Source: an uncultured Candidatus Saccharibacteria bacterium
Lineage (GTDB): Bacteria; Patescibacteriota; Doudnabacteria; UBA920
Direction of reading: 5' to 3'
Assembly: GCA_964532005.1 (NCBI GenBank)
Contig: CAZHER010000001.1
Coordinates: 55,502 to 119,501, forward strand
DNA: 64,000 nucleotides
In this document: positions 1 through 23,955 of the stretch, in pieces
Layout: the number at the start of each line of letters is the position of its first letter
Numbering within the stretch: the first letter of the stretch is position 1
Notes under the pieces: generated by a model
What the model was told of the DNA's origin: nothing
Seen by the model: the letters and a program-made list of their open reading frames with translations, nothing else
Databases searched by the model: none
Program-made: the position numbers and the translations under genes

Positions 1-51
1 AGAGCAAAGTATGGAATAAACAAAGCATCGGATACAGGAGAGGTTAACACT

Positions 52-2691
52 TTGTATGTGATCCCGTTTTTGGGTTATGCCAGCTATTTGGTCCCTGGAA
101 CTACAAACGACGCAGCCTATTTCCCACCTAAAATCCCTGAGATAAGAGTAAAAGTATATGCAAACACTGATGCGGGTAGAGCAGCGTATTTAGCAGATAA
201 AGACAAACCACCAGAGGATAGTGACAACCAAGGAGGCACAAGTACCGCAGCCACTGGCGGCTCAGCAATTGGTGATATAATCAATCAATTTGTTACGATA
301 CAAATTCTGATATTTACCCGAATTATTTACTGGCTGTTTGCAAATGTTTTGGCCCCGTTGATTGAAGCTTTACTGCAAGTCCACCCATACAAAGACATTT
401 TTGTTGAGGTTATTTATTTAGGTTGGCAGTTGATCCGCAACCTTTGTAACATATTCTTTATTGTTGTTTTGCTTGTAATCGGTCTAGGAACTTTGTTCCG
501 GGTAGAAAACTATAATTATAAGCATTTGTTGGTTAAGGTTGTTATAGCAGCTTTGTTAGTCAACTTTAGCTTGGTATTTGGTCAAGCTATTCTAGGTGTT
601 GCCGATACAGTGCAAGCACAGTTTTTACCCGACAGTGCCAATGTTATTCGCGCTTTGGGCAGCAAGCTCATGGTAGATCCGATAAATACTCTTACTCAAG
701 ATGAAAATTTTAGAGTAGGAAACTCAACGAGCGCTGGGGCGTCTTTTGCCAATATCGCCCGTCCAATGTTTGCTTTTGCTTTGGCTTTAGGTGCATTTTT
801 TGCATTTATTGCTATTGCAGCATTTTTAGTGATTCGGTTAGTGGCTTTGTGGGTGTTGCTTTTGGTATCCCCAATTGCTTATGTGGCAAACATACTTCCA
901 ATGACCAGCAATTACGGCAAAGAGTGGTGGAATAAGTTTTTAAAATATGCTTTTATGACCCCTGTGCTGGCATTTTTCTTGAATTTAGCCGCTGTGTTTG
1001 CCACCACATTTTTAAAGGACCAAGCAAGCTTTCAGAAATTGATGAGCGCACAGAATGTTGAAGGAACTATTAGCGAGTTTGTTTTTCTTGCCGGTAGCCA
1101 AATTTTGGTAATTCTGTTTATTCTAGTGGGTCTAAAAGCTGCCGCCAGTTCAGGTACCTATGGTGCCGCTGCAGTTACAGAATTTGCCGAGAAAGGGATG
1201 AAGAAGCCGTTTCAATGGGCTGGTAGCAAAGCTTTGGCAGGGACCAAAGCCGGAGCTGAAAGAGGATTTGAGGCCATACAGAATAGAGCTGGAATTACCT
1301 TAGATCCGCGGTTGTTAAAAAAAGCTGGTTCAGAATATTTTGCCGAGCAAAAAGCAAAGCGCTTGCAAGCCAGAGCCACGCGTAATTTTATGGGTATGAA
1401 GCACGGCCCCAAACTAGGAGATGCTAAAAGTAATTTTGAAGCTTATGCCAATTGGCGCGGGTTCAAAAGAGCTGTTTCGAGCGGTCCTTTGGGTTGGCGC
1501 GGTGCTGGGTATTACCAAAAAAAATATAACGAGGCTTCACCTTATGCCAGCCTAAAGACCGATGCAGAAAGAAAGCTCATGACAGATAAACGTTTTTATA
1601 ATAATAAAGCTTTGAAAAATAGAGAACCAGACAAACAACGATTGGAAATAGAGCTTAAAACTGCTGAATCGGACTATAATGCAAATCCCAAAGATGATGC
1701 TAAAAGAGCAGCGTTCGAAGATAAGCAAAACGAGTACAAGCAGTTTATGAGAACCAAGATCAATCCGTTGACTGAAGAAAATGAAAAAATAACAGCTGAA
1801 TTGGACAAAGACGAGCAATTAAAAAAAGATCTTATTGACCCAAGGACAAAACAAAAAGGGATTGCGAGTTGGGATGACGATATGCAAAAAGAGTGGCGCG
1901 AAAAAAAGGAATCTTACGACAAAAAAATTACTGAAAGAAAAAGGCCGGAAGGCTATGCAGCTATTGCTGCTCACCACCACTTATTGAGCGATGAAGAAAA
2001 GAAAATTTCTCATATTGACGACTCCGATCGCTTAGTGCAGTTGTATAAAGATGCGTTTGCTCAAGGGGATAGATATAAAGCAGAAGCAGTACTTCACAAA
2101 CTTGCTAAAGATACCAATTTTAACGAAATTACCACAGAACTATATGGCGGGATGAGCAGGGATCATAGCAAAAGACTTTTTGAAGATTTTGGGGAGCATT
2201 TTGGAGTAGATGAACATGGGGTTTTAGAACTGGCTTCGGAAGTTGGGTATATAAATGAAGGGGTTAATATGTATAATGGCGCGCGTTTAACTACCGTGGA
2301 TAAGCATGGTCATATGAAATGGGCAGAAAAACAACAACATGAAGCTGCCATAGAAGCCCAAATGAAAAAGGTTGAGCCGCAAGGACAAGCTAGGAATTTT
2401 TGGCGAGGATCTTTTGTGGATGAGCAGCAAAACGACAAGGGCGGTAAAGATTTTACATTGCACGGTGCAGGTATCAAAATTCTTGAAGATTCATTGTCAA
2501 AAGGAGCAGGTTTGAGAGGCGTAGCCGAACGTATGCAAGAATATAACAGAAATGCTATTGCAAAAGCCATCAGAGACGAAGTAGAAAAAAATCCAGCCGC
2601 AGCACGTGAAAGTGTTAAAAAGCTATACAACAATAAAGATTTAATGAGAGCTCTAGAAATGGGTAAATATGATTCTAATGTTTCCAAATAA
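52..2691 (+). CDS. VirB6/TrbL-like polytopic membrane protein with a ~500-aa K/E/D-rich C-terminal extension; may be 5'-truncated by the window edge
   Basis: The N-terminal ~350 aa hold 6-7 predicted hydrophobic helices, as in TrbL/VirB6 proteins. It lies immediately upstream of PrgI-like and VirB4 genes. The reading frame is open upstream of the TTG at 52 to position 1, with a GGAGAGG RBS at 37-43. Confidence 0.55.
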   Translation: MYVIPFLGYASYLVPGTTNDAAYFPPKIPEIRVKVYANTDAGRAAYLADKDKPPEDSDNQGGTSTAATGGSAIGDIINQFVTIQILIFTRIIYWLFANVLAPLIEALLQVHPYKDIFVEVIYLGWQLIRNLCNIFFIVVLLVIGLGTLFRVENYNYKHLLVKVVIAALLVNFSLVFGQAILGVADTVQAQFLPDSANVIRALGSKLMVDPINTLTQDENFRVGNSTSAGASFANIARPMFAFALALGAFFAFIAIAAFLVIRLVALWVLLLVSPIAYVANILPMTSNYGKEWWNKFLKYAFMTPVLAFFLNLAAVFATTFLKDQASFQKLMSAQNVEGTISEFVFLAGSQILVILFILVGLKAAASSGTYGAAAVTEFAEKGMKKPFQWAGSKALAGTKAGAERGFEAIQNRAGITLDPRLLKKAGSEYFAEQKAKRLQARATRNFMGMKHGPKLGDAKSNFEAYANWRGFKRAVSSGPLGWRGAGYYQKKYNEASPYASLKTDAERKLMTDKRFYNNKALKNREPDKQRLEIELKTAESDYNANPKDDAKRAAFEDKQNEYKQFMRTKINPLTEENEKITAELDKDEQLKKDLIDPRTKQKGIASWDDDMQKEWREKKESYDKKITERKRPEGYAAIAAHHHLLSDEEKKISHIDDSDRLVQLYKDAFAQGDRYKAEAVLHKLAKDTNFNEITTELYGGMSRDHSKRLFEDFGEHFGVDEHGVLELASEVGYINEGVNMYNGARLTTVDKHGHMKWAEKQQHEAAIEAQMKKVEPQGQARNFWRGSFVDEQQNDKGGKDFTLHGAGIKILEDSLSKGAGLRGVAERMQEYNRNAIAKAIRDEVEKNPAAARESVKKLYNNKDLMRALEMGKYDSNVSK

Positions 2692-2701
2692 GATATTGTA
2701 A

Positions 2702-4000
2702 ATGGCTTTAGATTTAACAGCACAATCTACAAAGGAATTTGTTCTTGAAAGGATCAAGGATGCTATTGAGTATGATGATCAGCAAGCTGCCGGAGAGGTG
2801 TTGAAAATTTTTCGGGAAGAAATGGTTGGGCAGTTGAGCAGGGTCGAAGCAGATCCAGAGTTATATAATTTATATAGGCAGTCGTGGATCACCGCTCAAT
2901 TTATCAAGTTATCCAGTATTCCCGAAGATGAGTTTTTCGATTTGATAAAAGAACACTTAATAGATGGGTTGAAGTTAAAAGATTACGATATAGTCGAGAA
3001 GATCGGTTTAAGAATATCTTTTATCCAAATTGAGGAAGATCAAGTAGTTTTTATGGAAAATCTTCTGGAGATAATACAGAAGAATAGCGGCGTTTTGGGT
3101 AGTAATAATTTGAAGTTAGGTGGTCGTACAGTTTTACCCACTATTGCAAACTGGTTATTGGACTACGACAATTACCCCTCGCAGTCAGCGCAAAAGTCAG
3201 ATTATGAGCAAATTGCCTATTTAAGTAAAAGCCCAAATGTCGCCGCGCTTTCCGATGAAGAAAAAAGGATTTTAATGGACATTCTTGACTGTTATGATTC
3301 ATTAAGAAATCTTTTAGCATATTATAAAAAATTGCCGGAAGTTGAGGATGATGAGATAAAGCCAGAAGATTTGCATTTGTATTACCCCGGAGCAATTTTC
3401 GTGGATGATTTAGAGAGCAACGGGCCTGCTGGTCCCGTAGAAAGTAGTACGAAAACAGGTGCTGAGACTGTTAAACCTGTTCCTGCTGTTGTACCCAAAA
3501 TAGAAACTCCGGCACCAAAATATCAACCCCCACTTGAACCTAAGCCAGCAGTGAAGCAGGACAGCTATGTTTTAGAAAAAACAGAGCCAAAACCCGAGCC
3601 TGCAAAAAGCGTGGCCGAACAAGTAAAAGAAGCGGTAGAGAAAAATGAGTATAAAGCGCCAGCAAGACCGTTGTTAAATATTCAGGATTTTTTGAACGAG
3701 CGGCATAATAAAAATAACAACCGGGGCGGTTTGGTGTTCGACGCCGCCGCGGTTCCAGTTTCGGGTTCGCATCAATCTGAAAAGCCCAAAGTCCCTCTTA
3801 CGTCAAAATCAGAACCCACACCAACTAATCCCAAAGTTAGTACAGAACCTGCTTTGCCAAAGGTCCCAGAAAATTTGCCAGTCAAAGCAGAATTAGCAAG
3901 AGCCTCTGCCACTCAACCATCAGCAGTTTCCAATCAGTCAGGCAAAACAGAAGAAATAGCAAAAAAATTAGAAGAGCTGAGAAAGCGCAAGAAAACATAA
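2702..4000 (+). CDS. hypothetical protein with a Pro/Lys/Glu-rich low-complexity C-terminal half, T4SS-associated
   Basis: Long ORF tightly linked between the VirB6-like and VirB4 genes. PEPKPAVK-type proline-rich repeats. No recognisable catalytic motifs. Confidence 0.5.
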   Translation: MALDLTAQSTKEFVLERIKDAIEYDDQQAAGEVLKIFREEMVGQLSRVEADPELYNLYRQSWITAQFIKLSSIPEDEFFDLIKEHLIDGLKLKDYDIVEKIGLRISFIQIEEDQVVFMENLLEIIQKNSGVLGSNNLKLGGRTVLPTIANWLLDYDNYPSQSAQKSDYEQIAYLSKSPNVAALSDEEKRILMDILDCYDSLRNLLAYYKKLPEVEDDEIKPEDLHLYYPGAIFVDDLESNGPAGPVESSTKTGAETVKPVPAVVPKIETPAPKYQPPLEPKPAVKQDSYVLEKTEPKPEPAKSVAEQVKEAVEKNEYKAPARPLLNIQDFLNERHNKNNNRGGLVFDAAAVPVSGSHQSEKPKVPLTSKSEPTPTNPKVSTEPALPKVPENLPVKAELARASATQPSAVSNQSGKTEEIAKKLEELRKRKKT

Positions 4001-4003
4001 AAT

Positions 4004-4762
4004 ATGCAGCCTCAACAAGCAGAGCGACTTAAAAGAATGATTAGCACTTCCACTATCCTGTCTCAGCAGGAAAAACAAGAGTGGATGGATTTGCTAATAG
4101 TGATGAACGACAAGCAAGTTTCGGAATTGGAAACTATTTTGACTGCGCCAGAAGAGCAAAAATCCAATTTGAGCCATATTTCAAATCTACCTTCTTCTGT
4201 TGCCCAAACAGTTTTAAAATCAAGTCCCGTACCAGTAGCCAAATATCCTTTATCTAAGCCGAGAATTGTAAAACCAACAGCGTTTAAAGATTGGGAAGCT
4301 AAATTAAGAAGAACTTTGCAGGAAAAAGAGTTGAGTTCCGGGCCAGATGAGAAAACTTTACCAGCACACGTGTTAGGCAATGCAATCCCCACCAAACGAG
4401 AAATAACTCAACCTAGATCCCAGGAAGCAACCCCTTTGCACAAGAGCGCTTTAGTTCATACGGAGCCAACAGTAAAAATAGTTGAACCTAAAGATGTTCA
4501 GAATTTGAATGTGGCGACTATGAAAGCAATGGGATCTCAACTAAACGAAGTGCTGAAAAAAGCTGTTTTGGCCTCAAATTATTTTGAAGTTTTATTTTAT
4601 TTAGAGAAAAGCCCCCTATATCAGGCATATTTGGCAACAGGACGGGAAGCCCTGAAAGATCCGGCTAATACTTTTCCTGCAACTTTGGATGGTAAACAGC
4701 TTTTGACAAAAGCTGAATTTGAAGCTTTTTCTGACCTGTTAAAATCGATGCAAACGGGGTAG
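4004..4762 (+). CDS. hypothetical protein, T4SS-associated
   Basis: ORF starts 4 nt after the previous stop. No motif recognised. Confidence 0.45.
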   Translation: MQPQQAERLKRMISTSTILSQQEKQEWMDLLIVMNDKQVSELETILTAPEEQKSNLSHISNLPSSVAQTVLKSSPVPVAKYPLSKPRIVKPTAFKDWEAKLRRTLQEKELSSGPDEKTLPAHVLGNAIPTKREITQPRSQEATPLHKSALVHTEPTVKIVEPKDVQNLNVATMKAMGSQLNEVLKKAVLASNYFEVLFYLEKSPLYQAYLATGREALKDPANTFPATLDGKQLLTKAEFEAFSDLLKSMQTG

Positions 4763-4788
4763 TTTTATGGTATAATTGAGGGGAAGAT

Positions 4789-5247
4789 ATGCAATATAAT
4801 GTTCCCCAATTTACTGATGTAGAAGACAAGCTGGTAGCCGGCTTGGGATTTAAGCAGTTTGGGATCTTGTTCGGAGTAGGGGTCCTGATGTTTTTAACTT
4901 GGAACATTACAAAAAGCGTAGCTTTGCTAATTATTGTTGGCGTATTTTTAGGACTTCCTGCTTTGGCCATAGTGTTTATTAAGGTTAACGGGCGTCCTTT
5001 ATACAATTCGTTGTTTGCCTTGGCAGGTTCCGCTTTTGAAGCAAAACATTTTGTTTTTCACAAGCAGGGCATGACGTTGGCCGAAAATAAAGAGACTGCG
5101 GTAATTAAAGAAGAGACGCCAGCCCAAGCCACTGGCACGGCAATGGTAAGAATAAAACAGCTAAATTATTTGTTACAGCAACAAGCATCAGAAGAACAAC
5201 TGCTCATTCAACATATAGCAGATGGAAACAAAACAAAAGAAACATAA
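4789..5247 (+). CDS. PrgI/TcpE-family (VirB3-like) small membrane protein
   Basis: About 150 aa with two adjacent TM helices (GILFGVGVLMFLTW... LLIIVGVFLGLPALAIVFI) directly upstream of VirB4. It has the size, topology and position of PrgI/VirB3. RBS GAGGGGA sits upstream of the ATG. Confidence 0.55.
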   Translation: MQYNVPQFTDVEDKLVAGLGFKQFGILFGVGVLMFLTWNITKSVALLIIVGVFLGLPALAIVFIKVNGRPLYNSLFALAGSAFEAKHFVFHKQGMTLAENKETAVIKEETPAQATGTAMVRIKQLNYLLQQQASEEQLLIQHIADGNKTKET

Positions 5248-5911
5248 TAAATCCGTAAATCCGACCCAGTCGTTTTTACGTACCAAAGAGATCAAAGGGG
5301 ACACCATGATCATGGATGACGGTACTTTGCGTGCTGTTTTAGCCGTGTCCTCAACTAATTTTGATCTGAAAAGTCAGAGCGAGCAAGATGCACTAATTTT
5401 TGCGTACCAAAGATTTTTAAATTCATTAGACTTTTCCATTCAAATATTAATGCAAAGCAGGCGAATGGATATCGCCAGTTATACCGAAAAGATTAAGGAT
5501 ATAATGGAGAAACAAACCAATGAATTGCTTCGGATGCAAACCGCAGAATATATTGAATTCGTTAACCGCTTGGTGGAAACTGGAAATATCATGAACAAGA
5601 ATTTTTATTGCATTATTTCGTATAATGAAAGTATTGGATCTGACAAGGTGGGGTTTTTTGCATCGTTATTTACTAAAAGCCGAGCCAAGGCCATTGCCCA
5701 AAGAGAAGCCAATTTTGAACACCATAAAGCAATGTTGGAAGAACGGGTGACCAGCGTTTCCAGCAATCTCAATGGCATGGGCTTGCGTGCTGTGAAACTC
5801 AACACAGAGCAGATAATAGAGTTGATTTATAACTCATATAATTTTGAATCAGCTCCACAGATCGATGCCAGCCAGCTGGAAAATGTCACTTTAACAGAAG
5901 AAACAAAATAA
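5222..5911 (+). CDS. VirB4/TrbE-family N-terminal domain, encoded as a separate ORF (split VirB4)
   Basis: The segment DGTLRAVLAVSSTNFDLKSQSEQDALIFAYQRFLNSLDFSIQI resembles the N-terminal region of VirB4/TraC/TrbE. Its stop lies 1 nt before the ATG of the ATPase ORF, in a different frame. Confidence 0.55.
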   Translation: METKQKKHNKSVNPTQSFLRTKEIKGDTMIMDDGTLRAVLAVSSTNFDLKSQSEQDALIFAYQRFLNSLDFSIQILMQSRRMDIASYTEKIKDIMEKQTNELLRMQTAEYIEFVNRLVETGNIMNKNFYCIISYNESIGSDKVGFFASLFTKSRAKAIAQREANFEHHKAMLEERVTSVSSNLNGMGLRAVKLNTEQIIELIYNSYNFESAPQIDASQLENVTLTEETK

Positions 5912-5912
5912 A

Positions 5913-7754
5913 ATGGGATTATTTGATTTAAACGAAGAACAATTAAAGAAAAAGAAAGAAGAGCTGGGAAAGCTGAAGGGAACTCTGGATGAGAATGCCC
6001 GTCTGGCTGAAGTGGAAAAGAACTACCGAGAAGGGCTCACTACGTTAAAAGATCTACTGGCCCCTTCGGCTTTACATTTTGAAAGCAACAGGTTTCAGCT
6101 GAACAACAAGTATGCCAGAACTTTTTTCGTGCTCGCATATCCCAGAATGCTTTCTACTAACTGGCTGTCCTTTATTATCAACTCTGAGGGTGAGTTGGAT
6201 GTATCAATGTTTATTTACCCGATTGACTCAGCTGTTATTTTAAAAAAACTTAAGTCAAAAGTTGGAGAAATCGGTTCACAAATAAGCATAAACCAGGAAA
6301 AAGGAATGGTCAGGGATCCAATGCTGGAAACGGCGTATAAAGATGTCGAAAGCTTGCGCGATGACCTTTCGCAAGGCACAGAAAAATATTTCCGCTTCGC
6401 TTTATATTTCACTATTTATGCAGAAGATGAAAAGGAATTGGAGAAAAATTCTACAATCTTAGAAAGCTCCCTTGGCGCTAAACTTGTTGTCACCAAGAGG
6501 GCATTGTTTCAGACCGAGGCCGGGTTTAACTCCTCTTTACCTCTTGGGCTAGATGAATTGGACATTGCAAACAATTTAAATACCTCGCCGCTGTCCACAA
6601 CATTTCCCTTTGTATCTTCCGATTTAACAGGAAATGACGGAATTTTGTACGGAATAAACAGACACAACAACAGTTTGATTCTGTTTGATCGGTTTAAAAT
6701 GGAAAATGCGAACTTTGTTGTTTTTGCAAAATCTGGTGCTGGAAAATCATATGCTATTAAGCTCGAAGTTTTGCGTTCATTAATGGTAGGTACTGAAGTT
6801 ATTATAATTGACCCAGAAAATGAGTATAAGCATTTGTCCGACGCAGTGGGAGGCACCTACTTAGGAATTTCGCTAAACTCCGACTTCCGCATTAACCCTT
6901 TTGACCTGCCATCTGCAATAGAAGACGAAGATACCGCAGATATTTTACGCAGCGGCATTATTAACCTATTAGGCTTGTTTAACCTCATTCTAGGCAAGCT
7001 AGACCCTACAGAAGAGGCTCTGTTGGACAAGGCCCTATGGCAGACGTATGCTAAAAAAGACATCACTGAAGCTAGCGATTTACGCACTGTAGAGCCTCCT
7101 GTGATGGCAGATCTTATTGAAGTTTTGAACGATATAGTTGGGGCGGAAAGCTTGTCTCAGCGGTTGACCAAATTTACTGAGGGGACTTTTGCGGGACTGC
7201 TAAACCAACCAACTAATGTTACCTTAAACAATCAGTTGCTTACTTTTTCTATACGCGACTTGGAAGAAGAACTTCGCCCTATTGCTATGTATATTATTTT
7301 GGGGCATATATGGAACTTGGTTAGAAGCGAATTAAAGCGCCGAATTTTGGTTTTGGACGAAGCTTGGATTATGATGCAACACGAAGATTCCGCCAGGTTT
7401 GTATTTGGAATTGCCAAGAGATGTAGAAAGTATTATTTAGGACTGACCACCATAACCCAGGACGTAGCTGACTTTATGAGCAGCCCGTATGGTAAGCCGA
7501 TCGTGACGAACTCATCTATCCAGCTTCTATTAAAGCAAAGCCCGGCAGCTATCGAGGTTATTGCTGAAACATTTTTCCTAACCGAAGGAGAAAAATATTT
7601 GCTTCTGGAAAGCGAAGTCGGCGAAGGTATCTTCTTCGCCGGCCTAAAGCACGCCGCTATTAAAATATACGGCTCATACGTAGAGGACCAGATTATCACA
7701 ACAGATCCAAAACAGCTCTTGGAGATTAAGCAGAGCAAAGAAGAGGTAATTTAA
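5913..7754 (+). CDS. virB4: VirB4-like type IV secretion ATPase (C-terminal ATPase domain)
   Basis: Walker A FAKSGAGKSYAIK and Walker B RILVLDEAWIMMQ. Overall VirB4/TraE-like organisation. Confidence 0.8.
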   Translation: MGLFDLNEEQLKKKKEELGKLKGTLDENARLAEVEKNYREGLTTLKDLLAPSALHFESNRFQLNNKYARTFFVLAYPRMLSTNWLSFIINSEGELDVSMFIYPIDSAVILKKLKSKVGEIGSQISINQEKGMVRDPMLETAYKDVESLRDDLSQGTEKYFRFALYFTIYAEDEKELEKNSTILESSLGAKLVVTKRALFQTEAGFNSSLPLGLDELDIANNLNTSPLSTTFPFVSSDLTGNDGILYGINRHNNSLILFDRFKMENANFVVFAKSGAGKSYAIKLEVLRSLMVGTEVIIIDPENEYKHLSDAVGGTYLGISLNSDFRINPFDLPSAIEDEDTADILRSGIINLLGLFNLILGKLDPTEEALLDKALWQTYAKKDITEASDLRTVEPPVMADLIEVLNDIVGAESLSQRLTKFTEGTFAGLLNQPTNVTLNNQLLTFSIRDLEEELRPIAMYIILGHIWNLVRSELKRRILVLDEAWIMMQHEDSARFVFGIAKRCRKYYLGLTTITQDVADFMSSPYGKPIVTNSSIQLLLKQSPAAIEVIAETFFLTEGEKYLLLESEVGEGIFFAGLKHAAIKIYGSYVEDQIITTDPKQLLEIKQSKEEVI

Positions 7755-7770
7755 AAGGAAAGCCGCAGAC

Positions 7771-9834
7771 ATGCTTTTACTAGACGGCTCCAATAACAAA
7801 TCTGGGGGTGATTCATTCAAAAAATATTTGGCAGACCAGGCTAAAAGAGAAGTTTTGAATCGCTCTCAAGATTACTTAAACGAAAACTTCTCCGACAGCG
7901 GAGATGATTTTGATTTTTCTGACGCTTTAGACGGAGGGTCGATTAAGGATTCCTTAAAATCCAACTTGAAGAAGCGGGCGAAAAAAGAAATAATTGGCCG
8001 TTCCCAAGATTACTTAAACAAAAATCTCTCCGACAGCGGAGATGATTTTGATTTTTCTGCATTAGATCAAGGGAGCTCGGTAAAAGATGTTCTAAAAGAT
8101 AATTTGAAGAAGCGGGCGAAAAAAGAGTTACTGCAAAGATCCCAAGACTATTTAAATGAAAAAAATCCTTTTGGTGAAGAAGGGGGAGGAAAGTTTGATT
8201 TTGCAGATAATGCCGGTGATAAGTCTCTAAAACAAATTTTTAAGGACAACGCAAAGGATATAGCTAAAGATCAATTGGCAAAACAAGGAGAAAGACTTTT
8301 TGATTATGCTCAAGAACAAAATCCCAGACTAGGAGGTTTGCGAGAAGCGTTTTATGATCCCAAAAATGACGACTTTTCCAAAAGATTTGCTGGAATTAAA
8401 GGCACAAATAAAGAAAAAATAAAAAAGCAGGTAGAACAAATACTGGACGAAGAGGGTAAAGAAGCTTTAAAGAAAAGGATTAAAAAAGAGATTGAACAGT
8501 ATTTAGAAAAATATGGAAAAAGGACTGCAACTGAGGAGGCACAACATTTAGCTAACAAAGGATTAAAGTATGGGGTCAGGAGAGGTGTTACCAAAACTGC
8601 AAAAACTGCTGTTAAGACAGGTATAGAATCAGCTGCAAAAACTGGAATCAAAGCCGGAGCCAATGTTGGTGCCAAGGTTGGGGCTACGGCAACAGCAGAA
8701 GTCGGCTTGGAAGCAGGTGCAGAATTCTTAGGAGCAGCCGGTGCTGTAGAAACTTTCGGCATCAGCGAAATACTTGCACAGCTAATTGTTATTGCAATAA
8801 GTTTGGGTATATCAGATGCAATTGATGGTGCGGAATGTTTATTGAAAAGGGATTACAAGCAAGCTTTTCATTTTTTCTTGCGAGCCGCAACTAAAATAGG
8901 AGTTTTTATTTTATTTATAGTAATTACAATAATAAGTTTTGCTATTTTAAATATTTTTGGTTTATTAATACCAGTTATCTTAATCGATCTGTATTGGTCG
9001 CTTAGTGCTATTCCTTTTGTACAAGATATGGCTTTGGCTCAAGGTTTAGTTTGGTGGGAAAAGCTAATTATAGTGTTAATGAACCTGTTAATAATTTTTG
9101 CCATAGGTTTGTATACCCTAATGGGCTTGTATATTTGGTGTAATATAGGGTCATTGGCAGGTACTACTGTTGGGGGACCTGTTGGCACAGTGATCGGGGG
9201 AGTAATAGATACGGCAACAACAGCAAAAGGGTCTTATTGTGAAGCGTTTCAAAAAGTGGGCTCCAGCACAGGAGGTTCAGGAGGGGGTCAAACTGGGGAT
9301 GGAGGCGGAGGCCAGACTGGCGGCCAGATCCCATCGGGAATGGTAGATGCTAAAACCGTGGTGCCGGACTTAGTGGTGGAAATGCGTTATGCCACGACCA
9401 ACAATTTCATGAACAAAGTTTTGTATAAAGCAGAGGGCACGCCAGGAAACAGGTGTTTGCTCAAAAGTTCGGTTGCTGATAATTTAAAGAAAGCACAAAC
9501 TGCCCTGGCGCAAAAAACCCCTGCAGGAATGAAGTTAAAGGTTTTGGATTGCTACAGGCCTGTTGAAGTACAACAAGAAATGTATGACTGGGGCAAGCCG
9601 TTGGGACATGTCCCAAAATACATTGCTGAACCAGGAAGCGGCAAGCATCCAAAAGGTGAAGCTATTGACTTAACTATAGTAGACAGTAGCGGAAAAGAAC
9701 TTTCTATGCCTTCAGATTTTGACGAGTTTTCTTCTAGAGCAGGCGGTTCAAATGCCAACTCACGCATTTTGGAACAGGTTATGGGAGCGGGCGGATTGAG
9801 CCGTATAGCCAGCGAGTGGTGGCACTTTAATTAA
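7771..9834 (+). CDS. membrane-embedded cell-wall hydrolase fusion: N-terminal acidic tandem repeats, polytopic TM segment, Gly-rich linker, C-terminal peptidase M15 (VanX/D-Ala-D-Ala dipeptidase-like) domain
   Basis: Three ~47-aa repeats (RSQDYLN.N.SDSGDDFDFS...). Three to four hydrophobic helices. A GGSGGGQTGDGGGGQTGG linker. The C-terminal EMRYATTNNF...EAIDLTIVD region resembles VanX-type M15 zinc peptidases. Confidence 0.6.
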   Translation: MLLLDGSNNKSGGDSFKKYLADQAKREVLNRSQDYLNENFSDSGDDFDFSDALDGGSIKDSLKSNLKKRAKKEIIGRSQDYLNKNLSDSGDDFDFSALDQGSSVKDVLKDNLKKRAKKELLQRSQDYLNEKNPFGEEGGGKFDFADNAGDKSLKQIFKDNAKDIAKDQLAKQGERLFDYAQEQNPRLGGLREAFYDPKNDDFSKRFAGIKGTNKEKIKKQVEQILDEEGKEALKKRIKKEIEQYLEKYGKRTATEEAQHLANKGLKYGVRRGVTKTAKTAVKTGIESAAKTGIKAGANVGAKVGATATAEVGLEAGAEFLGAAGAVETFGISEILAQLIVIAISLGISDAIDGAECLLKRDYKQAFHFFLRAATKIGVFILFIVITIISFAILNIFGLLIPVILIDLYWSLSAIPFVQDMALAQGLVWWEKLIIVLMNLLIIFAIGLYTLMGLYIWCNIGSLAGTTVGGPVGTVIGGVIDTATTAKGSYCEAFQKVGSSTGGSGGGQTGDGGGGQTGGQIPSGMVDAKTVVPDLVVEMRYATTNNFMNKVLYKAEGTPGNRCLLKSSVADNLKKAQTALAQKTPAGMKLKVLDCYRPVEVQQEMYDWGKPLGHVPKYIAEPGSGKHPKGEAIDLTIVDSSGKELSMPSDFDEFSSRAGGSNANSRILEQVMGAGGLSRIASEWWHFN
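7858..8290 (+). repeat. in-frame tandem DNA repeats (about 3 x ~140 bp) inside the CDS 7771-9834
   Basis: Near-identical nucleotide blocks: cgttcccaagattacttaaac...gacagcggagatgattttgatttttctg...ttgaagaagcgggcgaaaaaag. Confidence 0.7.
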
Positions 9835-9848
9835 CAGCAATAAAGATT

Positions 9849-10667
9849 ATGGATAATTTACCACATAACAACCCAGAAGCGGTTACTGAGTCAGAATCGG
9901 AACAAGATTACAAACATGATTATCGGGATAGGGAAATCGGCCGACAGTATTTTCCTATTGCTGCCTATGTTGGAATTATTGTAGCAATATTGGTGGGAGC
10001 TCTGATTATCGGTTTTAGTATTATAATTTCTTCAGGAAAGTATCCTCAATTGGCTGGCGATCGAGATAGTAAGCTGGCCGGGCCATCTGTCAACACAGGC
10101 TCGCAAATACAAAACGTTCCCCCAAATGCTGAAATAAAATTATTAGATGAGTACCCGTTTATGGGTTCAAAAGACGCCCCTATTACCATGGTGGAATTTG
10201 CAGATTTTCAGTGCCCATTCTGCAAGGAGTTTCATGATAAAGCTTTGGGGAAAATAAAGTCGGAGTATGTTGATTCAGGAATTGTTAAATTTTATTTTTT
10301 ACATTTTCCTTTTCTCGGGTCTGAATCGAACGCAGCAGCTGCCGCAGCCGAGTGCGCCAGACAGCAAAATAAGTTTTGGGAATTTCACGATCTATTGTAC
10401 AAGAATCAAGGGATGGAAAACGGCGGAGCTTTTGAAGATAAAGCTTTGTTAAAATTGGCAGGCCAATTAGAGTTAAATCTGGACAAATTTAATTCTTGCA
10501 GGGCCAACCCCAAAACAGCGGAAGCAGTAAAACAGCAACTAGATATAGGCCAGCAGCATGGGGTTGAGGCCACACCCACGGTTTTCATCAATGGAGCAAA
10601 ATATGAAGGTTCTAATCCTTTTTCAGCTTATCAGAGCTTAATAGAGGTGCTGAAAAGTAAAAAATAA
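9849..10667 (+). CDS. membrane-anchored DsbA-like thiol-disulfide oxidoreductase (thioredoxin fold)
   Basis: N-terminal TM helix. CPFC active site in the context FADFQCPFCKEFHDK. Confidence 0.7.
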   Translation: MDNLPHNNPEAVTESESEQDYKHDYRDREIGRQYFPIAAYVGIIVAILVGALIIGFSIIISSGKYPQLAGDRDSKLAGPSVNTGSQIQNVPPNAEIKLLDEYPFMGSKDAPITMVEFADFQCPFCKEFHDKALGKIKSEYVDSGIVKFYFLHFPFLGSESNAAAAAAECARQQNKFWEFHDLLYKNQGMENGGAFEDKALLKLAGQLELNLDKFNSCRANPKTAEAVKQQLDIGQQHGVEATPTVFINGAKYEGSNPFSAYQSLIEVLKSKK

Positions 10668-10673
10668 AATTGC

Positions 10674-10699
10674 TTGACCGGGCATAAATATGTTATAAT
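10674..10699 (+). promoter_or_regulatory. putative sigma70-type promoter with extended -10 (TGtTATAAT) and a TTGACC -35-like hexamer
   Basis: ttgacc at 10674-10679 and tgttataat at 10691-10699, about 35 nt upstream of the ATG at 10733. The spacer is short (14 nt) but is compensated by the extended -10. Confidence 0.4.
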
Positions 10700-10732
10700 T
10701 TAGCCAGTAATTATTCTTTAGAAACAAAAATA

Positions 10733-11893
10733 ATGAATAAAAAAGCTATAGCCATACTCGGGGGAATATTCCTTTTGATTGTATTGGCTCTGGGTTTGCT
10801 TATATTCCTAAGGTCACGAAATTCCAGCGACAACACAAATCAGAATTCTAATGATCAAGTTCAGGTTCCTGACCCTCAAAATAATACTGAACCAGAACCT
10901 GAACCAGAACAGCCTAGTGTCAACAGGGCAGAAAAACTTACCGACGGCGATGTTGTGGCTCCTGCGTTGTATTACAACGGACAAGGGATTTCTTATTTTG
11001 ACCAGCAGGGCCGTTTGTTTACCACCGACCTAGAAACTTCCGGCGATAAGGTATTGCTCAGCAACAAACGAGAAATTACCATCCCTTTGAAAGCCAACAT
11101 GATTAATGTTTATTGGGCACCGTCGGGACAAAATTTTATTGCTGAGTTGCAGTCCGGTGGAAAATCTATTTGGAGCTATTATGACGGCACCAAAGGATCA
11201 TATGTAGATATACCGTCACAAGTTCAGTCATTGGATTGGTTTGGCACAAGCGGAAAAATTTTGTTTGTCTGGCAGGATGAAACAGGAAAAGCTTATCTCA
11301 ATTCAGGAAACCCAGATACTACTGAATATCAAGTCTTAACTGACTTGTACGAGGCAGACAATAAGATTGTTGTTTCCCCTAACGGACGCAGTGTTTTATT
11401 TTACCGCTTTAACAATGCCGGAACCCAAAATTCTATCAATTTTGTTTCCCCTGACGGCAAAGTGTTCAAATCCATTGTAAAAGAAGGATATAATACGGGT
11501 GTAAAATGGTCTCCTGACAGCAACAAGTTCTTGTTCAATAGAAGAGATCCCGCAACTCAAAAGTTAGCACTATGGGTAGGAGATCTGACTTCAGGTGAGA
11601 TAAAAAGCTTGAACGTTGAAACTACTTTAGAAAAAACGGTATGGTCACGAGACGGACAAAATGTGTACGCCGCTGTGCCGAATAAAGGAATAGCCGGACA
11701 AGGCTTAACAGAAGACGTGCTATATAAAATAACAGTTTCCAGCACCCTGAGACAGCAATATGATTTCGGTGTGCCTGCTGACGCCAGAAATATGTTTGTT
11801 GACCAATCCGAGAGTAAGATTTTCTTCAAAAATTATCAAGATCAATATTTGTACTATTTCAACGTTCAAAATAGTTCAAACTCAGGACAGTAG
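10733..11893 (+). CDS. secreted/membrane-anchored beta-propeller (PD40/TolB-like repeat) protein
   Basis: N-terminal TM/signal. Repeated WAPSGQ / SPNGRS / WSPDSN motifs typical of PD40-like propeller blades. Confidence 0.45.
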   Translation: MNKKAIAILGGIFLLIVLALGLLIFLRSRNSSDNTNQNSNDQVQVPDPQNNTEPEPEPEQPSVNRAEKLTDGDVVAPALYYNGQGISYFDQQGRLFTTDLETSGDKVLLSNKREITIPLKANMINVYWAPSGQNFIAELQSGGKSIWSYYDGTKGSYVDIPSQVQSLDWFGTSGKILFVWQDETGKAYLNSGNPDTTEYQVLTDLYEADNKIVVSPNGRSVLFYRFNNAGTQNSINFVSPDGKVFKSIVKEGYNTGVKWSPDSNKFLFNRRDPATQKLALWVGDLTSGEIKSLNVETTLEKTVWSRDGQNVYAAVPNKGIAGQGLTEDVLYKITVSSTLRQQYDFGVPADARNMFVDQSESKIFFKNYQDQYLYYFNVQNSSNSGQ

Positions 11894-11909: not shown

Positions 11910-11950
11910 CACCCCTTCTTTCTTTTAAGAAGGGGTGTTATTATTTATTT
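11910..11950 (+). terminator. rho-independent terminator
   Basis: 9-bp perfect stem caccccttc/gaaggggtg with a 10-nt loop, followed by ttattatttattt. Confidence 0.6.
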
Positions 11951-13297
11951 ATGAAAGAAAAAACAGTATATTTTTGTACAAATTGCAATTTTCAAACTCC
12001 TAGATGGCAGGGAAAATGTTCTGAATGTGGTGAATGGAACACTTTTGAAGAAAGAGTCATAACAACCTCTAAATCAAAAAATTCCTCTTATTCAAGCTTG
12101 AATTCGGGAAAGATTGTATCTTTAAGCCAGGTGGGCGATATGAAATTCGAGCGTTTAAGTTCTGGAATAGGAGAACTGGATAATGTGCTGGGTGGAGGCA
12201 TAGTTCCCGGAAGCTTGTTGCTATTGGGGGGAGACCCAGGAATTGGCAAGTCCACCTTGGCTTTGCAAGTGGCTTTGAACATGGGTTCTGCCAACGGAAC
12301 CGTTTTATATATATCTGGGGAAGAATCAGCACAGCAAATAAAAATGAGGAGCAGAAGAATTCCAAGCGGAACCGATATACAAATTTTAGGGGAAACTAAC
12401 TTGGAGACTATCCTAGATGTTTTGGTGAATACTAAGCCTAGTATAGCAATTATAGATTCCATTCAAACGTTGAACTCCCAAGAAATTGGCGGTGTGGTCG
12501 GCGGGGTAAGCCAACTTAGTTATTGCACCAATGCTTTAATGCGAGTAGCAAAAGAGAACCATATTGCAATTTTGCTTATTGGGCACGTAACCAAAGAGGG
12601 AATGCTGGCAGGGCCAAAAACAATTGAACATATGGTGGATACGGTTTTGTATTTGGAAGGGGATCGTTTTTTAACTTTGCGTCTACTGCGTAGCAGTAAA
12701 AATAGATTCGGAAGTGTCGGAGAAGTTGGTGTGTTCGAGATGACTGAACAGGGGTTGAAAGAAGTAGTCAATCCATCATTGCTGTTTTTGGAAAACCGGG
12801 GATCGGCACTGCCCGGAAGTTGCGTCGCAGCAGTACTAGAAGGGAATAAGACACTGTTTCTAGAAGTACAAGCACTGACCAGTCCCTCTTCTTTCGGCTA
12901 TCCAAAGCGTGCTACGTCAGGCTTCGATGTAAACAGACTACAGTTGCTTTTGGCTATCCTGCAAAAAAGCTTAAAACTCGAACTGAATGCCCACGATGTG
13001 TACATAAATGTTGCAGGAGGTTTTAAAATCCAGGAAAGAGCAGCAGACCTAGCAGTGGTGATGGCAGTGCTCTCATCTTTTAAAAACAGAGCTTTACCTG
13101 AAGATTTGGTTGCTTTTGGTGAAATTGGCCTACTTGGAGAATTGCGCGCTGTTAGCCAATCAGATCGTAGGCTAAAAGAAGCTCAAAAATTATCTTTTAA
13201 AAACATTATTATAGGAGGACAGGCAAAAGGGGTCTCAAAAGATAAATCAGTGTTTTCGGTTTCAAAAATACAAGAGTTGGTGAAGTTTTTAGGATAA
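11951..13297 (+). CDS. radA: DNA repair protein RadA/Sms
   Basis: N-terminal C4 zinc finger (CTNCNFQTPRWQGKCSECGEW). RecA-like Walker A GDPGIGKST. Lon-like C-terminal domain. Confidence 0.9.
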   Translation: MKEKTVYFCTNCNFQTPRWQGKCSECGEWNTFEERVITTSKSKNSSYSSLNSGKIVSLSQVGDMKFERLSSGIGELDNVLGGGIVPGSLLLLGGDPGIGKSTLALQVALNMGSANGTVLYISGEESAQQIKMRSRRIPSGTDIQILGETNLETILDVLVNTKPSIAIIDSIQTLNSQEIGGVVGGVSQLSYCTNALMRVAKENHIAILLIGHVTKEGMLAGPKTIEHMVDTVLYLEGDRFLTLRLLRSSKNRFGSVGEVGVFEMTEQGLKEVVNPSLLFLENRGSALPGSCVAAVLEGNKTLFLEVQALTSPSSFGYPKRATSGFDVNRLQLLLAILQKSLKLELNAHDVYINVAGGFKIQERAADLAVVMAVLSSFKNRALPEDLVAFGEIGLLGELRAVSQSDRRLKEAQKLSFKNIIIGGQAKGVSKDKSVFSVSKIQELVKFLG

Positions 13298-13300
13298 GTC

Positions 13301-15355
13301 TCATTCTTGGTGAGTAACTGATATTATAGGCTCTATTTTTTGAAGAAGAAGTGGGAAGCGAGCAAGGCTTTTGTCCTGTTTAAACAGAGCTGTTGCTGCG
13401 ATTTGGGCTATTTCAGCCATTTCTGAAGTGAAATATCTGGAAAATTGGAAAGAAAATCCACTTTGTTCAGTTCCAAACAGATTACCAAAACCTCTTTGCT
13501 TCAGATCTTGTTCTGCTAAAGCAAATCCGTCCAAACAGTTGGCGAAAAATTTCAATCTTTCATAATTTTTGGCATCTCCAGAGCTCGAAAACAATGCACA
13601 AAAACTTTTTTGTCCTGCACGGCCAACCCTGCCTCTTAGTTGGTGGAGTTGGGCAAGTCCAAATCTTTCTGCTCCTTCAATAATAATCCAGCTTGCCCGT
13701 GGAATATCTATGCCAATTTCAATGACCGAAGTTGCTACTAATATTTTTATTTTTCCTTGACTGAATTCTGACATCACTTGCTCTTTATCAACTCCTTTCA
13801 TTGATCCATATAGCAGCCCCATCGGAATATTTTTAAATGGTCCCGATTTTAGTTTTTCATATTCTTCCTTTACGGATTTAATTTGCGAAGTCTCACTATC
13901 TTCAACTCTAGGTGTGACAATGAATGCCTGCTCGCCATTCTTGATGGCATCGATTAGTACTGAATAAATTTTTTGTCGGTCACTTTCTTGAGCAAGAAGA
14001 GTGGAAATTTTTTTTGTCCCAGAGGGTATAGTGTAGAGAGTTGAAATTTTTAAGTTACCGTAAAACGACAACGCTAGGGTTCTGGGAATTGGTGTTGCCG
14101 ACATGGATAGAAGATGAGGGACAAGTTTTTGATACTGCACTTGCTTAAGCACAAAAGATCGTTGGTTTACTCCAAACCTGTGCTGCTCGTCAATAATTGC
14201 CAATCCCAACTTGTTAAAACTTACTTCTTTTTGGAGAATTGCGTGTGTACCAATTAAAATTTGTATTGATCCTGACGCGGTTTTTTCCAATAGCTCCGCT
14301 TTGTTTTTTACATTGGTACCGTTGGATTCAGCGAAATTCTTAGTTAAAAATCCGATAGAGCATTCTGGTAGAAATTTTTTAAAATATGTATAGTGCTGGG
14401 AAGCAAGTATTTCCGTCGGTGCAAGAACACAGGTTTGCCAACCGGAAATTGCATTGTTTAACGCTGCCAAGACCGCCACCAAAGTTTTTCCACTACCAAC
14501 ATCGCCTTGTAACAGACGAACCATTTGTTCGCCTGACGATAGGTCTTGCATAATGTCCCACAAAGCTCTTTTTTGGCTAGCAGTAAGCTGGAACGGCAAA
14601 GTTTTTAGAGTTTTGGCAACCTGTTCGGTTTGCAATTCTATTGGCGGTGCAGACACTTTTGCTTGTCTGGATTGCTGTAATCCAGCCGCCAATTGGTGTA
14701 CAAACAGCTCTTCAAAAGCTATTCGGTTTTTGGCCAGCTCCAGTTCTTGATCGTTGTCTGGAAAATGAAGGTCTAGTATTGTCTTATTTATATTGGGTAG
14801 GCGATATTTTTTTAATATTTTCTTTGGAAGTATTTCGGGTTCTTGCTCTGCATAAGGCAATGCTGAAGTAATGATGTTTCTCAGAGTTTTGTTTGAAATC
14901 ACCGAACTGCCCGAATAAACAGGTACAAGTCGACCTGTATGTACTGAATCGGAGCTCAGCTTTTCATAAATAGGATTCTGTAACTGCAAAACATTTTTGT
15001 AGTAAGTAGCGGTCCCAGCTAGGGCAATGTCGTCGCCGGCAGAAAGGGCTTTGGCAATATAGGGTTGGTTAAACCAAATTATTTTAATGGATCCTGTTTT
15101 ATCGGATACAACTGCTTCCGAGCGACTCATTCGTCCCCGGAAAGCAAAAGACGCTGAGACGGATTTTACCTGTCCCCGTATTGTCACAGCTTGCCCCGTT
15201 TTGATTTTTGAGATGGAAACTATTTGCCTAAAATCTAAATATCGCAAAGGAAAATGCCAAAGCAAATCCTTTATGGTATTAATTCCTATTTTTTCAAGAT
15301 TTTTGGCAACAGCAGGACCAACTTTGGGTAGAATTGTGACTGGATCGTGTGTCAT
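13301..15355 (-). CDS. recG: ATP-dependent DNA helicase RecG
   Basis: DVGSGKT Walker A, DEQHRFG, SATPIPRTL and the wedge/OB N-terminal region. Length is typical (684 aa). Confidence 0.9.
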   Translation of the reverse strand: MTHDPVTILPKVGPAVAKNLEKIGINTIKDLLWHFPLRYLDFRQIVSISKIKTGQAVTIRGQVKSVSASFAFRGRMSRSEAVVSDKTGSIKIIWFNQPYIAKALSAGDDIALAGTATYYKNVLQLQNPIYEKLSSDSVHTGRLVPVYSGSSVISNKTLRNIITSALPYAEQEPEILPKKILKKYRLPNINKTILDLHFPDNDQELELAKNRIAFEELFVHQLAAGLQQSRQAKVSAPPIELQTEQVAKTLKTLPFQLTASQKRALWDIMQDLSSGEQMVRLLQGDVGSGKTLVAVLAALNNAISGWQTCVLAPTEILASQHYTYFKKFLPECSIGFLTKNFAESNGTNVKNKAELLEKTASGSIQILIGTHAILQKEVSFNKLGLAIIDEQHRFGVNQRSFVLKQVQYQKLVPHLLSMSATPIPRTLALSFYGNLKISTLYTIPSGTKKISTLLAQESDRQKIYSVLIDAIKNGEQAFIVTPRVEDSETSQIKSVKEEYEKLKSGPFKNIPMGLLYGSMKGVDKEQVMSEFSQGKIKILVATSVIEIGIDIPRASWIIIEGAERFGLAQLHQLRGRVGRAGQKSFCALFSSSGDAKNYERLKFFANCLDGFALAEQDLKQRGFGNLFGTEQSGFSFQFSRYFTSEMAEIAQIAATALFKQDKSLARFPLLLQKIEPIISVTHQE

Positions 15356-15482: not shown

Positions 15483-15950
15483 CTAAAACCGGAGTTTATG
15501 AATTAGCCGCTGTACAAAAGTTTCTTCTGTGCTGGAATGTTCCGGTACCTCTCTTAGTAAGATTTCCCTAACTGCATCAGGATTTTGGGTTTCTAGTTCT
15601 ACAAGAATAGTGCGGTTAATGTAAGCCGTGGTTTCAATATTTAAAGTTTTGTGATTTTCGTTATCTACAATCCAAAAGTATTTCATTTGGGCGTAGGGGA
15701 TAAAACTCCGCTCTATTCTTATTCCTTCCGATGTCAGACTAATATTAACTTTTCCAGGTTGGTGCATAGCAAAAATTAAAATAAAAATCGCTATAATGCC
15801 TAGACTGATTGCACCAAAATAGTCTTTCTGAAATATTTCAAAAGCAATAATTAGGACCACTATGATCCCCAAAGTCCCATACCAAGCTATATTTTTGGGA
15901 TAGTGTCTAAATTCAGCTGCCTCCCATGACAAGAATGTTGTTTCAGCCAT
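15483..15950 (-). CDS. hypothetical membrane protein (two TM helices plus a small C-terminal domain)
   Basis: ORF with hydrophobic segments GTLGIIVVLIIAFEIF and AISLGIIAIFILIFA. No recognised motif. Confidence 0.45.
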   Translation of the reverse strand: MAETTFLSWEAAEFRHYPKNIAWYGTLGIIVVLIIAFEIFQKDYFGAISLGIIAIFILIFAMHQPGKVNISLTSEGIRIERSFIPYAQMKYFWIVDNENHKTLNIETTAYINRTILVELETQNPDAVREILLREVPEHSSTEETFVQRLIHKLRF

Positions 15951-21541: not shown

Positions 21542-21653
21542 AAAGTAATTTTGGGCAAATTGTGATGCCTAATATACGTTATTATAACATATTTGTCAAG
21601 ACAAGTCTTATTGTTTGATATACTACTTCTGTAATTATAAACGGATACAGTTC

Positions 21654-23597: not shown

Positions 23598-23671
23598 TGT
23601 GTTTAATTAATTTTAATGACTAAGCCAGTAAATCTAGTATATCATGTTAGGGAAAAGATATAAAAATTTGT

Positions 23672-23700
23672 TTGACAAACATCTCCCCTGTAAGTATAAT
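23672..23700 (+). promoter_or_regulatory. consensus sigma70 promoter (TTGACA-17 nt-TATAAT)
   Basis: Exact TTGACA at 23672-23677, a 17-nt spacer and exact TATAAT at 23695-23700 on the + strand. No ORF with an RBS follows for ~250 nt. Confidence 0.6.
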
Positions 23701-23706
23701 ATCTTT

Positions 23707-23879: not shown

Positions 23880-23955
23880 TAAGGAAGAAATTCTGAGCAA
23901 ACCGGCTATTTATAGCCAAAAAGAACAAGGGGGAATACTAACATAAGGAGACGTT

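Follow-up and report, generated by a model that had tools for sequence, protein, structure and literature searches.

Is a gene block that resembles a conjugation module, lying at the end of a contig from an uncultured bacterium that belongs to the Candidate Phyla Radiation (CPR), a mobile element, or does it belong to the resident machinery of the cell, and of which parts is that machinery built? The question is raised by a 64,000-nt stretch (hereafter the window) of contig CAZHER010000001.1 in assembly GCA_964532005.1, in which nine plus-strand genes occupy positions 1–11893 with gaps of 1–65 nt and a single 26-nt overlap. We consider it likely that this region is the 5'-truncated core operon of a chromosomal, vertically inherited type IV secretion system (T4SS) of the Patescibacteria type in a Candidatus Doudnabacteria genome. 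The cluster is a further member, a Doudnabacteria instance, of the T4SSs published in 2023–2025, and the analyses presented below support its identification as a T4SS of the monoderm style (MPF_FATA-related) in a CPR genome. The new detail is the replacement of an SLT domain by an M15 domain next to a linked DsbA gene; two class-restricted proteins, here called A and B, and a co-inherited beta-propeller likewise go unmentioned in the main text of a 2025 survey of CPR genomes.

Bacteria of the CPR, which account for a large part of bacterial diversity, live attached to other microbes, and in the sole tractable model their T4SS is one of the few machines with a demonstrated essential role in this way of life. 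In the survey of Quinonero-Coronel et al. (2025; PMC12102498), VirB4 was found in 2,417 of 3,035 CPR genomes and formed a CPR-specific clade within MPF_FATA. TrsD was its most abundant companion (1,664 copies adjoining virB4), homologues of PrgI/VirB3 and VirB6 were present, VirB8 and VirB1 were rare, relaxases occurred in only 103 of the 3,035 genomes, and the genes for the type IV coupling protein (T4CP) were mostly located far from virB4. For epibiotic growth, Saccharibacteria require their T4SS, which transposon sequencing (Tn-seq) showed to be essential (Wang et al. 2023; PMC10633639), and in S. epibionticum the genes for a peptidase and a lysozyme that come directly after virB4 are essential too (PMC12102498). 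A preliminary description of the window had called such systems poorly characterised, which these two studies contradict. The genes of the cluster and the hairpin that follows them are:

1–2691, plus strand: VirB6/TrbL-like polytopic protein, 5' end cut (Pfam TrbL, 25.2 bits)
2702–4000, plus strand: unknown protein A, 432 amino acids (aa), with a helical domain and a disordered Pro-rich region
4004–4762, plus strand: unknown protein B, 252 aa, with a helical motif, a disordered linker and a helical domain
4789–5247, plus strand: PrgI/VirB3-like protein with two transmembrane (TM) segments (Pfam PrgI, 33.9 bits)
5222–5911, plus strand: TrsD/TraD-like protein (Pfam 'TraC-like'), 229 aa (NCBIfam, PF26593 and hhalign matches)
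5913–7754, plus strand: VirB4 ATPase, 613 aa (NCBIfam conju_CD1110, 351 bits; Pfam matches)
7771–9834, plus strand: membrane protein at the VirB1 position with a C-terminal M15 domain, 687 aa (Peptidase_M15, 94 bits)
9849–10667, plus strand: membrane-anchored DsbA-like thiol-disulfide oxidoreductase with a CPFC motif (Thioredoxin_4, 127 bits)
10733–11893, plus strand: N-terminally anchored PD40/TolB-like beta-propeller (Pfam PD40 and NCBIfam TolB, both weak)
11910–11937, no strand assigned: terminator-like hairpin between the propeller gene and radA, 11-bp stem with T-runs on both sides

The evidence for a resident locus comes from its relatives and its surroundings. A scan of species-representative genomes yielded 80 loci, nearly all labelled Candidatus Doudnabacteria or generically CPR; gene order and identity were compared across the 77 Doudnabacteria loci, the order being testable in 63. 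In all 63, the order VirB6, PrgI, TrsD, VirB4, propeller, RadA and, on the opposite strand, RecG is collinear, and VirB4, the most conserved protein of the block, has a median identity of 79%, compared with 57% for RadA and 47% for RecG. The closest VirB4 relatives in similarity comparison all come from Patescibacteria/Doudnabacteria metagenome-assembled genomes (72–95% identity), whereas the best plasmid-encoded VirB4s (Embleya, Streptomyces and Pontibacillus, that is, monoderms of the Actinomycetota and Bacillota) reach 29–37%. The GC content is flat at about 0.40 across the 64 kb, and the flanks consist of housekeeping genes (ClpB, GatA/B, MiaA, RRF, RseP, ProRS, MreB/C, PBP2, FolD and GreA, as well as LysRS, SerRS, a Mur ligase, rhamnose biosynthesis genes and a sortase). 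Pfam scans of essentially all open reading frames (ORFs) of at least 120 aa in the 64 kb detected no relaxase, coupling protein, VirB11 or integrase, in line with the preliminary description, which had seen no relaxase, VirD4 or VirB11, and no repeat boundary was found in the same 64 kb.

The VirB6 ORF is open back to position 1, where it is cut by the edge of the window and contig; an ENA scaffold with an identical gene set begins 233 nt upstream, and the accessible contigs end 195–233 nt upstream. The suggestion that VirD4 or a relaxase might lie just beyond this edge fared poorly, because the relatives (L076, positions 54–3543, and a JGI contig) encode three unknown ORFs of about 220, 543 and 397 aa upstream of VirB6, and no relaxase, T4CP or VirB11 was found there. 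The 543- and 397-aa products have N-terminal hydrophobic segments, the latter also being Cys-rich; all three ORFs are weakly conserved in other Doudnabacteria loci and probably belong to the same cluster. The chromosomal setting without a relaxase or coupling protein in the cluster, which is typical of the Patescibacteria clade, thus applies both to the window and to the upstream genes of its relatives.

Two readings would make the locus something other than a functional resident system. The cluster could be a conjugative plasmid or an integrative and conjugative element (ICE) of Gram-positive origin, integrated or mis-binned, with its relaxase and coupling protein just outside the window: its gene order is similar to that of monoderm conjugation clusters, the NCBIfam model that VirB4 matches best belongs to a conjugative-transposon family, and the cluster sits at a contig end. 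We nevertheless regard this as highly improbable, because synteny with radA and recG is identical at 63 of 63 loci, VirB4 is more conserved than either of them, GC is even between the cluster and the rest of the window, and plasmid VirB4s are at best 37% identical; the 64 kb without integrase, relaxase, T4CP or repeat boundary and the upstream genes of the relatives argue in the same direction. An origin in an ordinary Firmicutes element, which the preliminary description had named as the outcome that would overturn it, therefore finds no footing in flanks of housekeeping genes with the same GC and a synteny that is kept across the class. The other reading, that VirB4 is a pseudogene frameshifted at 5911/5913 in a decaying system, builds on the fact that the TrsD and VirB4 ORFs lie in different frames, 1 nt apart, and are jointly collinear with full-length VirB4 models. 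Yet the two-gene arrangement, with varying junctions, is found in nearly every relative and on a Bacillota plasmid, the VirB4 homologues are consistently about 614 aa long, both proteins are strongly constrained (median identity of 58% for TrsD and 79% for VirB4), and TrsD is recognised by name as a gene of its own in pGO1-type systems and at 1,664 CPR loci. Conservation hence rules out the frameshift, to which we assign next to no probability.

With a resident operon as the favoured reading, its components can be considered in turn. Every ORF named in the preliminary description is present in the ORF list, on the plus strand and at the positions given there; the same-strand block of VirB6, two unknowns, PrgI, VirB4, a peptidase and DsbA was confirmed by ORFs and by hidden Markov model (HMM) matches, and the HMM searches support the labels VirB6, PrgI, VirB4, M15 and DsbA, the TrbL match being marginally under its cut-off and matched in orthologues. 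The block had been delimited at 10667; the genes listed up to that point hold, and the unit itself probably runs on to 11893 and includes the PD40/TolB-like propeller gene, because this gene is found in 70 of the 77 relatives, always in the same position where gene order is testable, and the 11-bp-stem hairpin comes after it, just before radA. The propeller protein matches Pfam PD40 and the NCBIfam TolB propeller, both weakly, and begins with a hydrophobic segment.

VirB4 matches the NCBIfam model conju_CD1110 above its cut-off of 325 bits, at profile positions 157–728 of 752, as well as Pfam P-loop_TraG (88 bits), CagE_TrbE_VirB (27.5 bits), AAA_10 and DUF87. Its Walker A (AKSGAGKS at residue 272, nt 6726–6749) and Walker B (ILVLDE at 478, nt 7344–7361) motifs are intact, and its hundreds of homologues (about 80% identity) come, where named, from Patescibacteria or Doudnabacteria. 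The ORF preceding it, for which PF26593 (TraC-like) is on record, matches the NCBIfam VirB4_plasma model (Mbov_0397 VirB4) at profile positions 92–238 (E 4.7e-10), the TrsD/TraD model at positions 27–201 of 201 (E 1.6e-6) and the CD1110 VirB4 model at positions 20–123, and hhalign relates it with a probability of 99.7% to the Pontibacillus plasmid gene that lies upstream of VirB4. Because it covers profile positions 20–123 and the 613-aa ORF positions 157–728, in this order, the two are collinear with full-length monoderm VirB4, and, judging from these profile matches, the TrsD-like protein is the equivalent of the N-terminal segment of that protein. Of the 77 relatives, 74 have a TrsD match ahead of VirB4, covering at least half of the protein in 71 of them, so that the earlier statement that VirB4 is present as two ORFs is correct in the sense of a conserved TrsD–VirB4 pair and incorrect in the sense of one split gene. 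The idea that TrsD is a paralogue of the N-terminal domain within VirB4 received weak support (BLASTP E 4e-4; hhalign probability 2.8%) and was dropped in favour of collinearity with the full-length profiles. Natural TrsD–VirB4 fusions were sought among homologues of 690–807 aa, of which P0080 and P0092 lack a TrsD-like N-terminus, and a profile search with TrsD against the sequences of the PDB found nothing.

A separate TrsD-like gene adjoining virB4, together with VirB3/PrgI and VirB6 homologues nearby, is the arrangement of the Patescibacteria-clade T4SS. In VirB6, the TrbL match (residues 165–345) lies 0.7 bits under the cut-off of 25.9; 8 of 24 orthologues match TrbL independently, with a best E of 2.6e-9, and TrbL_3 is on record for the JGI orthologue. 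The protein contains 6–7 hydrophobic stretches and a hydrophilic C-terminal extension of ~480 aa ('extended VirB6'), whereas full-length orthologues measure 1000–1430 aa and start with an N-terminal signal or anchor (1003 aa and an anchor in L076). PrgI exceeds its Pfam cut-off of 27 bits and has hydrophobic segments at roughly residues 15–37 and 44–66; it is its gene that overlaps that of TrsD by 26 nt. A VirB2-like pilin ORF was not found in the window, intergenic space included.

Proteins A and B are Doudnabacteria-restricted, helical, partly disordered and soluble proteins encoded between VirB6 and VirB3; neither has TM segments, and their position is kept within the class at identities of only about 25–28%. 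In its AlphaFold2 (AF2) model, protein A begins with a confident all-helical domain of ~215 residues, continues in a long disordered region rich in Pro and ends in a basic helix that is conserved. In protein B, an N-terminal three-helix motif (EKxEWLxLLxLMNDKQLxELExIL) is followed by a Pro-rich disordered linker that bears the conserved motif LSHIxNLP and by a helical C-terminal domain of ~90 residues (AF2). These all-helical, partly disordered structures rule out VirB8/PrgL and PrgB folds, the comparison that the preliminary description had proposed for the two proteins. A profile search with protein B against the PDB sequences found nothing, and a concatenated A+B query returned family A only.

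The gene that follows virB4 takes different forms among the relatives. Its product always consists of a variable charged N-terminal region and 4–5 TM helices, to which the window protein adds a Gly-rich linker and the C-terminal M15 domain (PF01427; residues 523–687, nt ~9337–9834). In most Doudnabacteria loci, the product measures about 350 aa, ends behind the TM helices and carries no enzyme; in one subclade, it extends into an enzyme domain and a DsbA gene comes after it. The closest relatives, L076 (VirB4 93% identical) and the JGI contig (95%), encode an SLT lytic transglycosylase domain at this place, followed by a gene of ~212 aa and then DsbA. The window lacks the ~212-aa gene and shares with the SLT orthologues the module up to '...SYCEAF' and the Gly-rich linker, and the domain junction is fixed, the conserved module ending at one point in the SLT and M15 forms. 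The hydrolase had been described as non-canonical, and it is so in that M15 stands where close relatives have SLT. Among 5.8 billion proteins, 12 homologues were detectable, three with M15, five with SLT and four without a recorded domain, and the type of enzyme does not agree with the similarity of the N-terminal module: P0126 combines an L076-like N-terminus with M15. This disagreement suggests that enzyme domains are exchanged as cassettes at the slot behind VirB4, and we infer that an SLT domain was replaced by a VanX/DdpX-like M15 D-Ala-D-Ala peptidase in the lineage of the window.

In the alignment with VanX (PDB 1R44), the M15 domain keeps R596 (in DCYRP), H626, D633, E682 and H685, which correspond to Arg71, His116, Asp123, Glu181 and His184; the zinc ligands (H, D, H), the catalytic Arg and the Glu are kept in all three M15-fused variants. 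About 14–18 residues present in VanX between the Arg and the first His are missing, and the protein ends 2 residues past the last His. By its fold family and these catalytic residues, the domain is thus predicted to belong to the VanX/DdpX group (M15D), although it stays below equivalog level (99.9 bits against a cut-off of 176 for NCBIfam DdpX and 39 against 320 for VanX) and, being fused behind 4–5 TM helices, is not a soluble cytoplasmic single-domain enzyme. A metagenome search recovered M15 relatives outside T4SSs with at most 40% identity, mostly of ~200–240 aa and from organisms of higher GC; about half of 40 inspected had an N-terminal hydrophobic segment, and none of those in the metagenomes was linked to T4SS genes. 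Two weak phage matches (31–32% identity) were also seen. No similarity emerged when the M15 domain was compared, for remote homology, with the 212-aa gene located behind SLT in the relatives.

The 5' part of the same gene contains a tandem repeat of 46 aa (138 nt) at 7867–8156, in about 2.1 copies of ~80% identity, the units of which encode 'RSQDYLN..SDSGDDFDF...KDxLKxNLKKRAKKE' and each contain a small perfect hairpin, TCTCCGACAGCGGAGA. In another Doudnabacteria subclade (L012, L016, L021, L028, L031, L036, L047 and others), the gene behind virB4 encodes ~800–1200 aa, in which the TM helices lie close to the C-terminus and Pfam recognises no domain, so that the N-terminal cytoplasmic region of this protein appears to be highly expandable. 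Many relatives also encode a fast-evolving protein of ~150–210 aa between this protein and DsbA or the propeller (for example, L076:13684–14322, L001:11282–11833 and L012:14974–15540), which the window does not. It has an N-terminal hydrophobic segment, and in size and anchoring it would suit either a VirB8-like or a partner/immunity protein; a profile search of PDB sequences with the ~180-aa downstream proteins of the relatives found nothing.

The DsbA-like protein (Thioredoxin_4; DSBA, 50 bits) has an N-terminal TM segment and carries its CPFC motif at residues 122–125. Its gene lies at this position exclusively behind upstream proteins that bear a C-terminal extension, and does so at all six such loci (four SLT, one M15 and one without a recognised domain). 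Both this linkage and the obligatory outside location of SLT argue that the enzyme domain behind VirB4 is extracytoplasmic.

From what is known of VirB systems, VirB4 and TrsD would dock via PrgI onto the VirB6 channel, and VirB4 would power assembly and the passage of substrates across the single membrane. The tethered hydrolase domain would face outward, be folded oxidatively with the help of the adjacent DsbA and remodel peptidoglycan locally so that the machine can span the wall, which is the role of VirB1. By analogy with the Saccharibacteria Tn-seq data and the 2025 survey, the machine would act as a contact-dependent translocon for life on a host cell and not in conjugation. Several observations weigh against parts of this scheme. 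Four clear TM helices and a cytoplasmic N-terminus would place the M15 domain inside the cell, an outward position requiring a fifth, weakly hydrophobic helix, and hydropathy alone leaves the topology unsettled. VanX and DdpX are cytoplasmic dipeptidases, which makes a wall-remodelling role of the M15 domain an assumption. As most loci lack an enzyme domain, the hydrolase cannot be indispensable to the machine. Furthermore, the window was found to contain no component resembling VirB8 or VirB2 and no adhesin.

Two other functions have to be weighed against a translocon for host contact. The T4SS might import DNA from the host or the environment, like the H. pylori ComB or the archaeal Ced system, and feed the recombination genes radA, recG, comF and recX: radA and recG follow the cluster wherever they are found (region 11951–15355 in the window), radA in order at every testable locus and recG, in 54 of 54 cases, on the opposite strand, a ComF-family phosphoribosyltransferase gene (18294–18899, minus strand) and recX (21615–22148) lie nearby, relaxase and T4CP are missing from the window as an importer would predict, and there is a weak CedB match (49 bits). 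In class ABY1, virB4 likewise neighbours comF, recG and radA, and functional coordination has been suggested (PMC12102498). However, a strong terminator-like hairpin stands between the operon and radA, and recG is encoded on the other strand; none of the cluster's proteins was identified as a DNA-binding component, and the linkage may reflect frozen synteny in a slowly rearranging lineage. Moreover, transformation of S. epibionticum needs ComEC and a comEC mutant is viable, whereas the T4SS is essential, so that the essential role is not DNA uptake through ComEC (Wang et al. 2023). We hold DNA import to be unlikely, and its more elaborate form, in which host DNA is taken up for radA, recG, comF and recX and the hydrolase cassette is tuned to the wall that is breached, possibly that of the host, to be somewhat less likely still. 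About equally doubtful as this elaborate form is the proposal that the C-terminal enzyme is a swappable, 'polymorphic' weapon or feeding tool directed at the host wall, with the ~200-aa gene as its immunity or partner protein. It would account for the exchange of domains at a fixed junction past a conserved module and Gly-rich linker, for the discordance between enzyme type and N-terminal module (P0126 versus L076), for the fast evolution of the ~212-aa gene, which has no detectable homologue even in other SLT-bearing loci, and for the lack of any enzyme in most lineages; the hydrophobic N-termini in about half of the 40 M15 relatives are consistent with export. Against it, a linker of only ~30 residues tethers the enzyme covalently to a polytopic protein, as would suit work on the wall of the cell itself, neither a cleavage site nor a secretion signal is apparent, the monoderm VirB1 analogues PrgK and TraG are likewise membrane-anchored and modular, and the M15 version lacks a candidate immunity gene.

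Several features elsewhere in the window were also recorded. On the minus strand, genes for an ECF-type sigma factor (17482–18084) and then a DUF5667 protein (16335–17474) and a DUF5673 protein (15483–15950) are interleaved with tRNA-Ser and tRNA-Arg and may form a sigma/anti-sigma unit; DUF5667 is found at the same place in the JGI relative. In the 0.9 kb at 23598–24499, long ORFs are absent and no Rfam family matches at E<0.05; two genes for small proteins, both with good ribosome-binding sites, probably lie there, at 23956–24132 (58 aa) and about 24167–24405 (79 aa); a 93-aa ORF (24500–24781) directly precedes the amidase/GatB genes. A 476-aa protein with a C-terminal sortase domain (59946–61376) is encoded next to a dTDP-rhamnose operon (56551–59830) and several glycosyltransferases, envelope genes that may bear on surface display in a monoderm.

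The window brings no new kind of system but a clean Doudnabacteria example that refines the parts list, in which VirB4 surpasses RadA and RecG in conservation, proteins A and B and the propeller travel with the core genes, and the place of the wall hydrolase can be empty or filled by SLT or M15, as an exchangeable slot that brings its own DsbA. The slot, proteins A and B and the propeller could help to separate core from adaptive components.

Known systems can be compared at two levels. At the level of the enzyme, the D-Ala-D-Ala dipeptidases VanX and DdpX (MEROPS M15D) are soluble cytoplasmic proteins of ~200 aa, whereas the window domain is the C-terminus of a polytopic 687-aa protein. PrgK (pCF10) and TraG (pIP501) are, as in the window, membrane-anchored modular peptidoglycan hydrolases encoded beside VirB4, and they share the SLT fold family with the orthologues of the window gene in close relatives; they combine SLT, CHAP or LytM domains with a single N-terminal anchor, in contrast to the 4–5 TM helices, repeat-bearing cytoplasmic region and M15 domain found here.

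At the level of the cluster, the order in pGO1/pSK41/pIP501 (TrsC-TrsD-TrsE-TrsF-TrsG) is a VirB3-like protein, a separate TrsD, VirB4, a membrane protein and a wall hydrolase. The window resembles it in this order and in a monoderm architecture without outer-membrane core components; the plasmid-borne location, relaxase, T4CP, VirB8-like TraM/TraH and SLT+CHAP hydrolase of those systems have no counterpart in it. Of the components that define conjugative MPF_FATA systems, the window thus contains neither a relaxase and VirD4/TcpA-type coupling protein nor a VirB8-like component (PrgL/TraM, with an NTF2-like fold and N-terminal TM segment), and in place of an SLT/CHAP hydrolase of the VirB1 type it has M15 only, SLT being present in orthologues. 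A close parallel in gene order is the CD1110-family cluster on the plasmid of Pontibacillus sp. ALD_SL1 (NZ_CP062975.1), whose VirB4 aligns with 36% identity across 93% of its length. There, a large membrane protein, a small membrane protein, TrsD (274 aa), VirB4 and a peptidoglycan hydrolase follow one another as VirB6...VirB3-TrsD-VirB4-hydrolase do in the window, which bears out the Firmicutes-type gene order noted in the preliminary description; the Pontibacillus cluster differs in a pilin-like Mbov_0395 gene and an M23 DD-metalloendopeptidase and has no equivalents of proteins A and B, DsbA or the propeller.

The Patescibacteria-clade T4SS, as represented by S. epibionticum SEML1_0006–0019, is like the window in its chromosomal site, in the set of VirB6, PrgI/VirB3, TrsD and VirB4, in a peptidoglycan-acting enzyme encoded just downstream of virB4 and in having no relaxase or nearby T4CP, and the representatives in class ABY1 share the radA, recG and comF neighbours. 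The window differs in having no visible array of VirB2-like pilins and in possessing proteins A and B, a membrane-fused M15 domain, a DsbA next to it and a TolB-like propeller. Neither the change from SLT to M15 with DsbA nor proteins A and B nor the co-inherited propeller are mentioned in the main text of PMC12102498.

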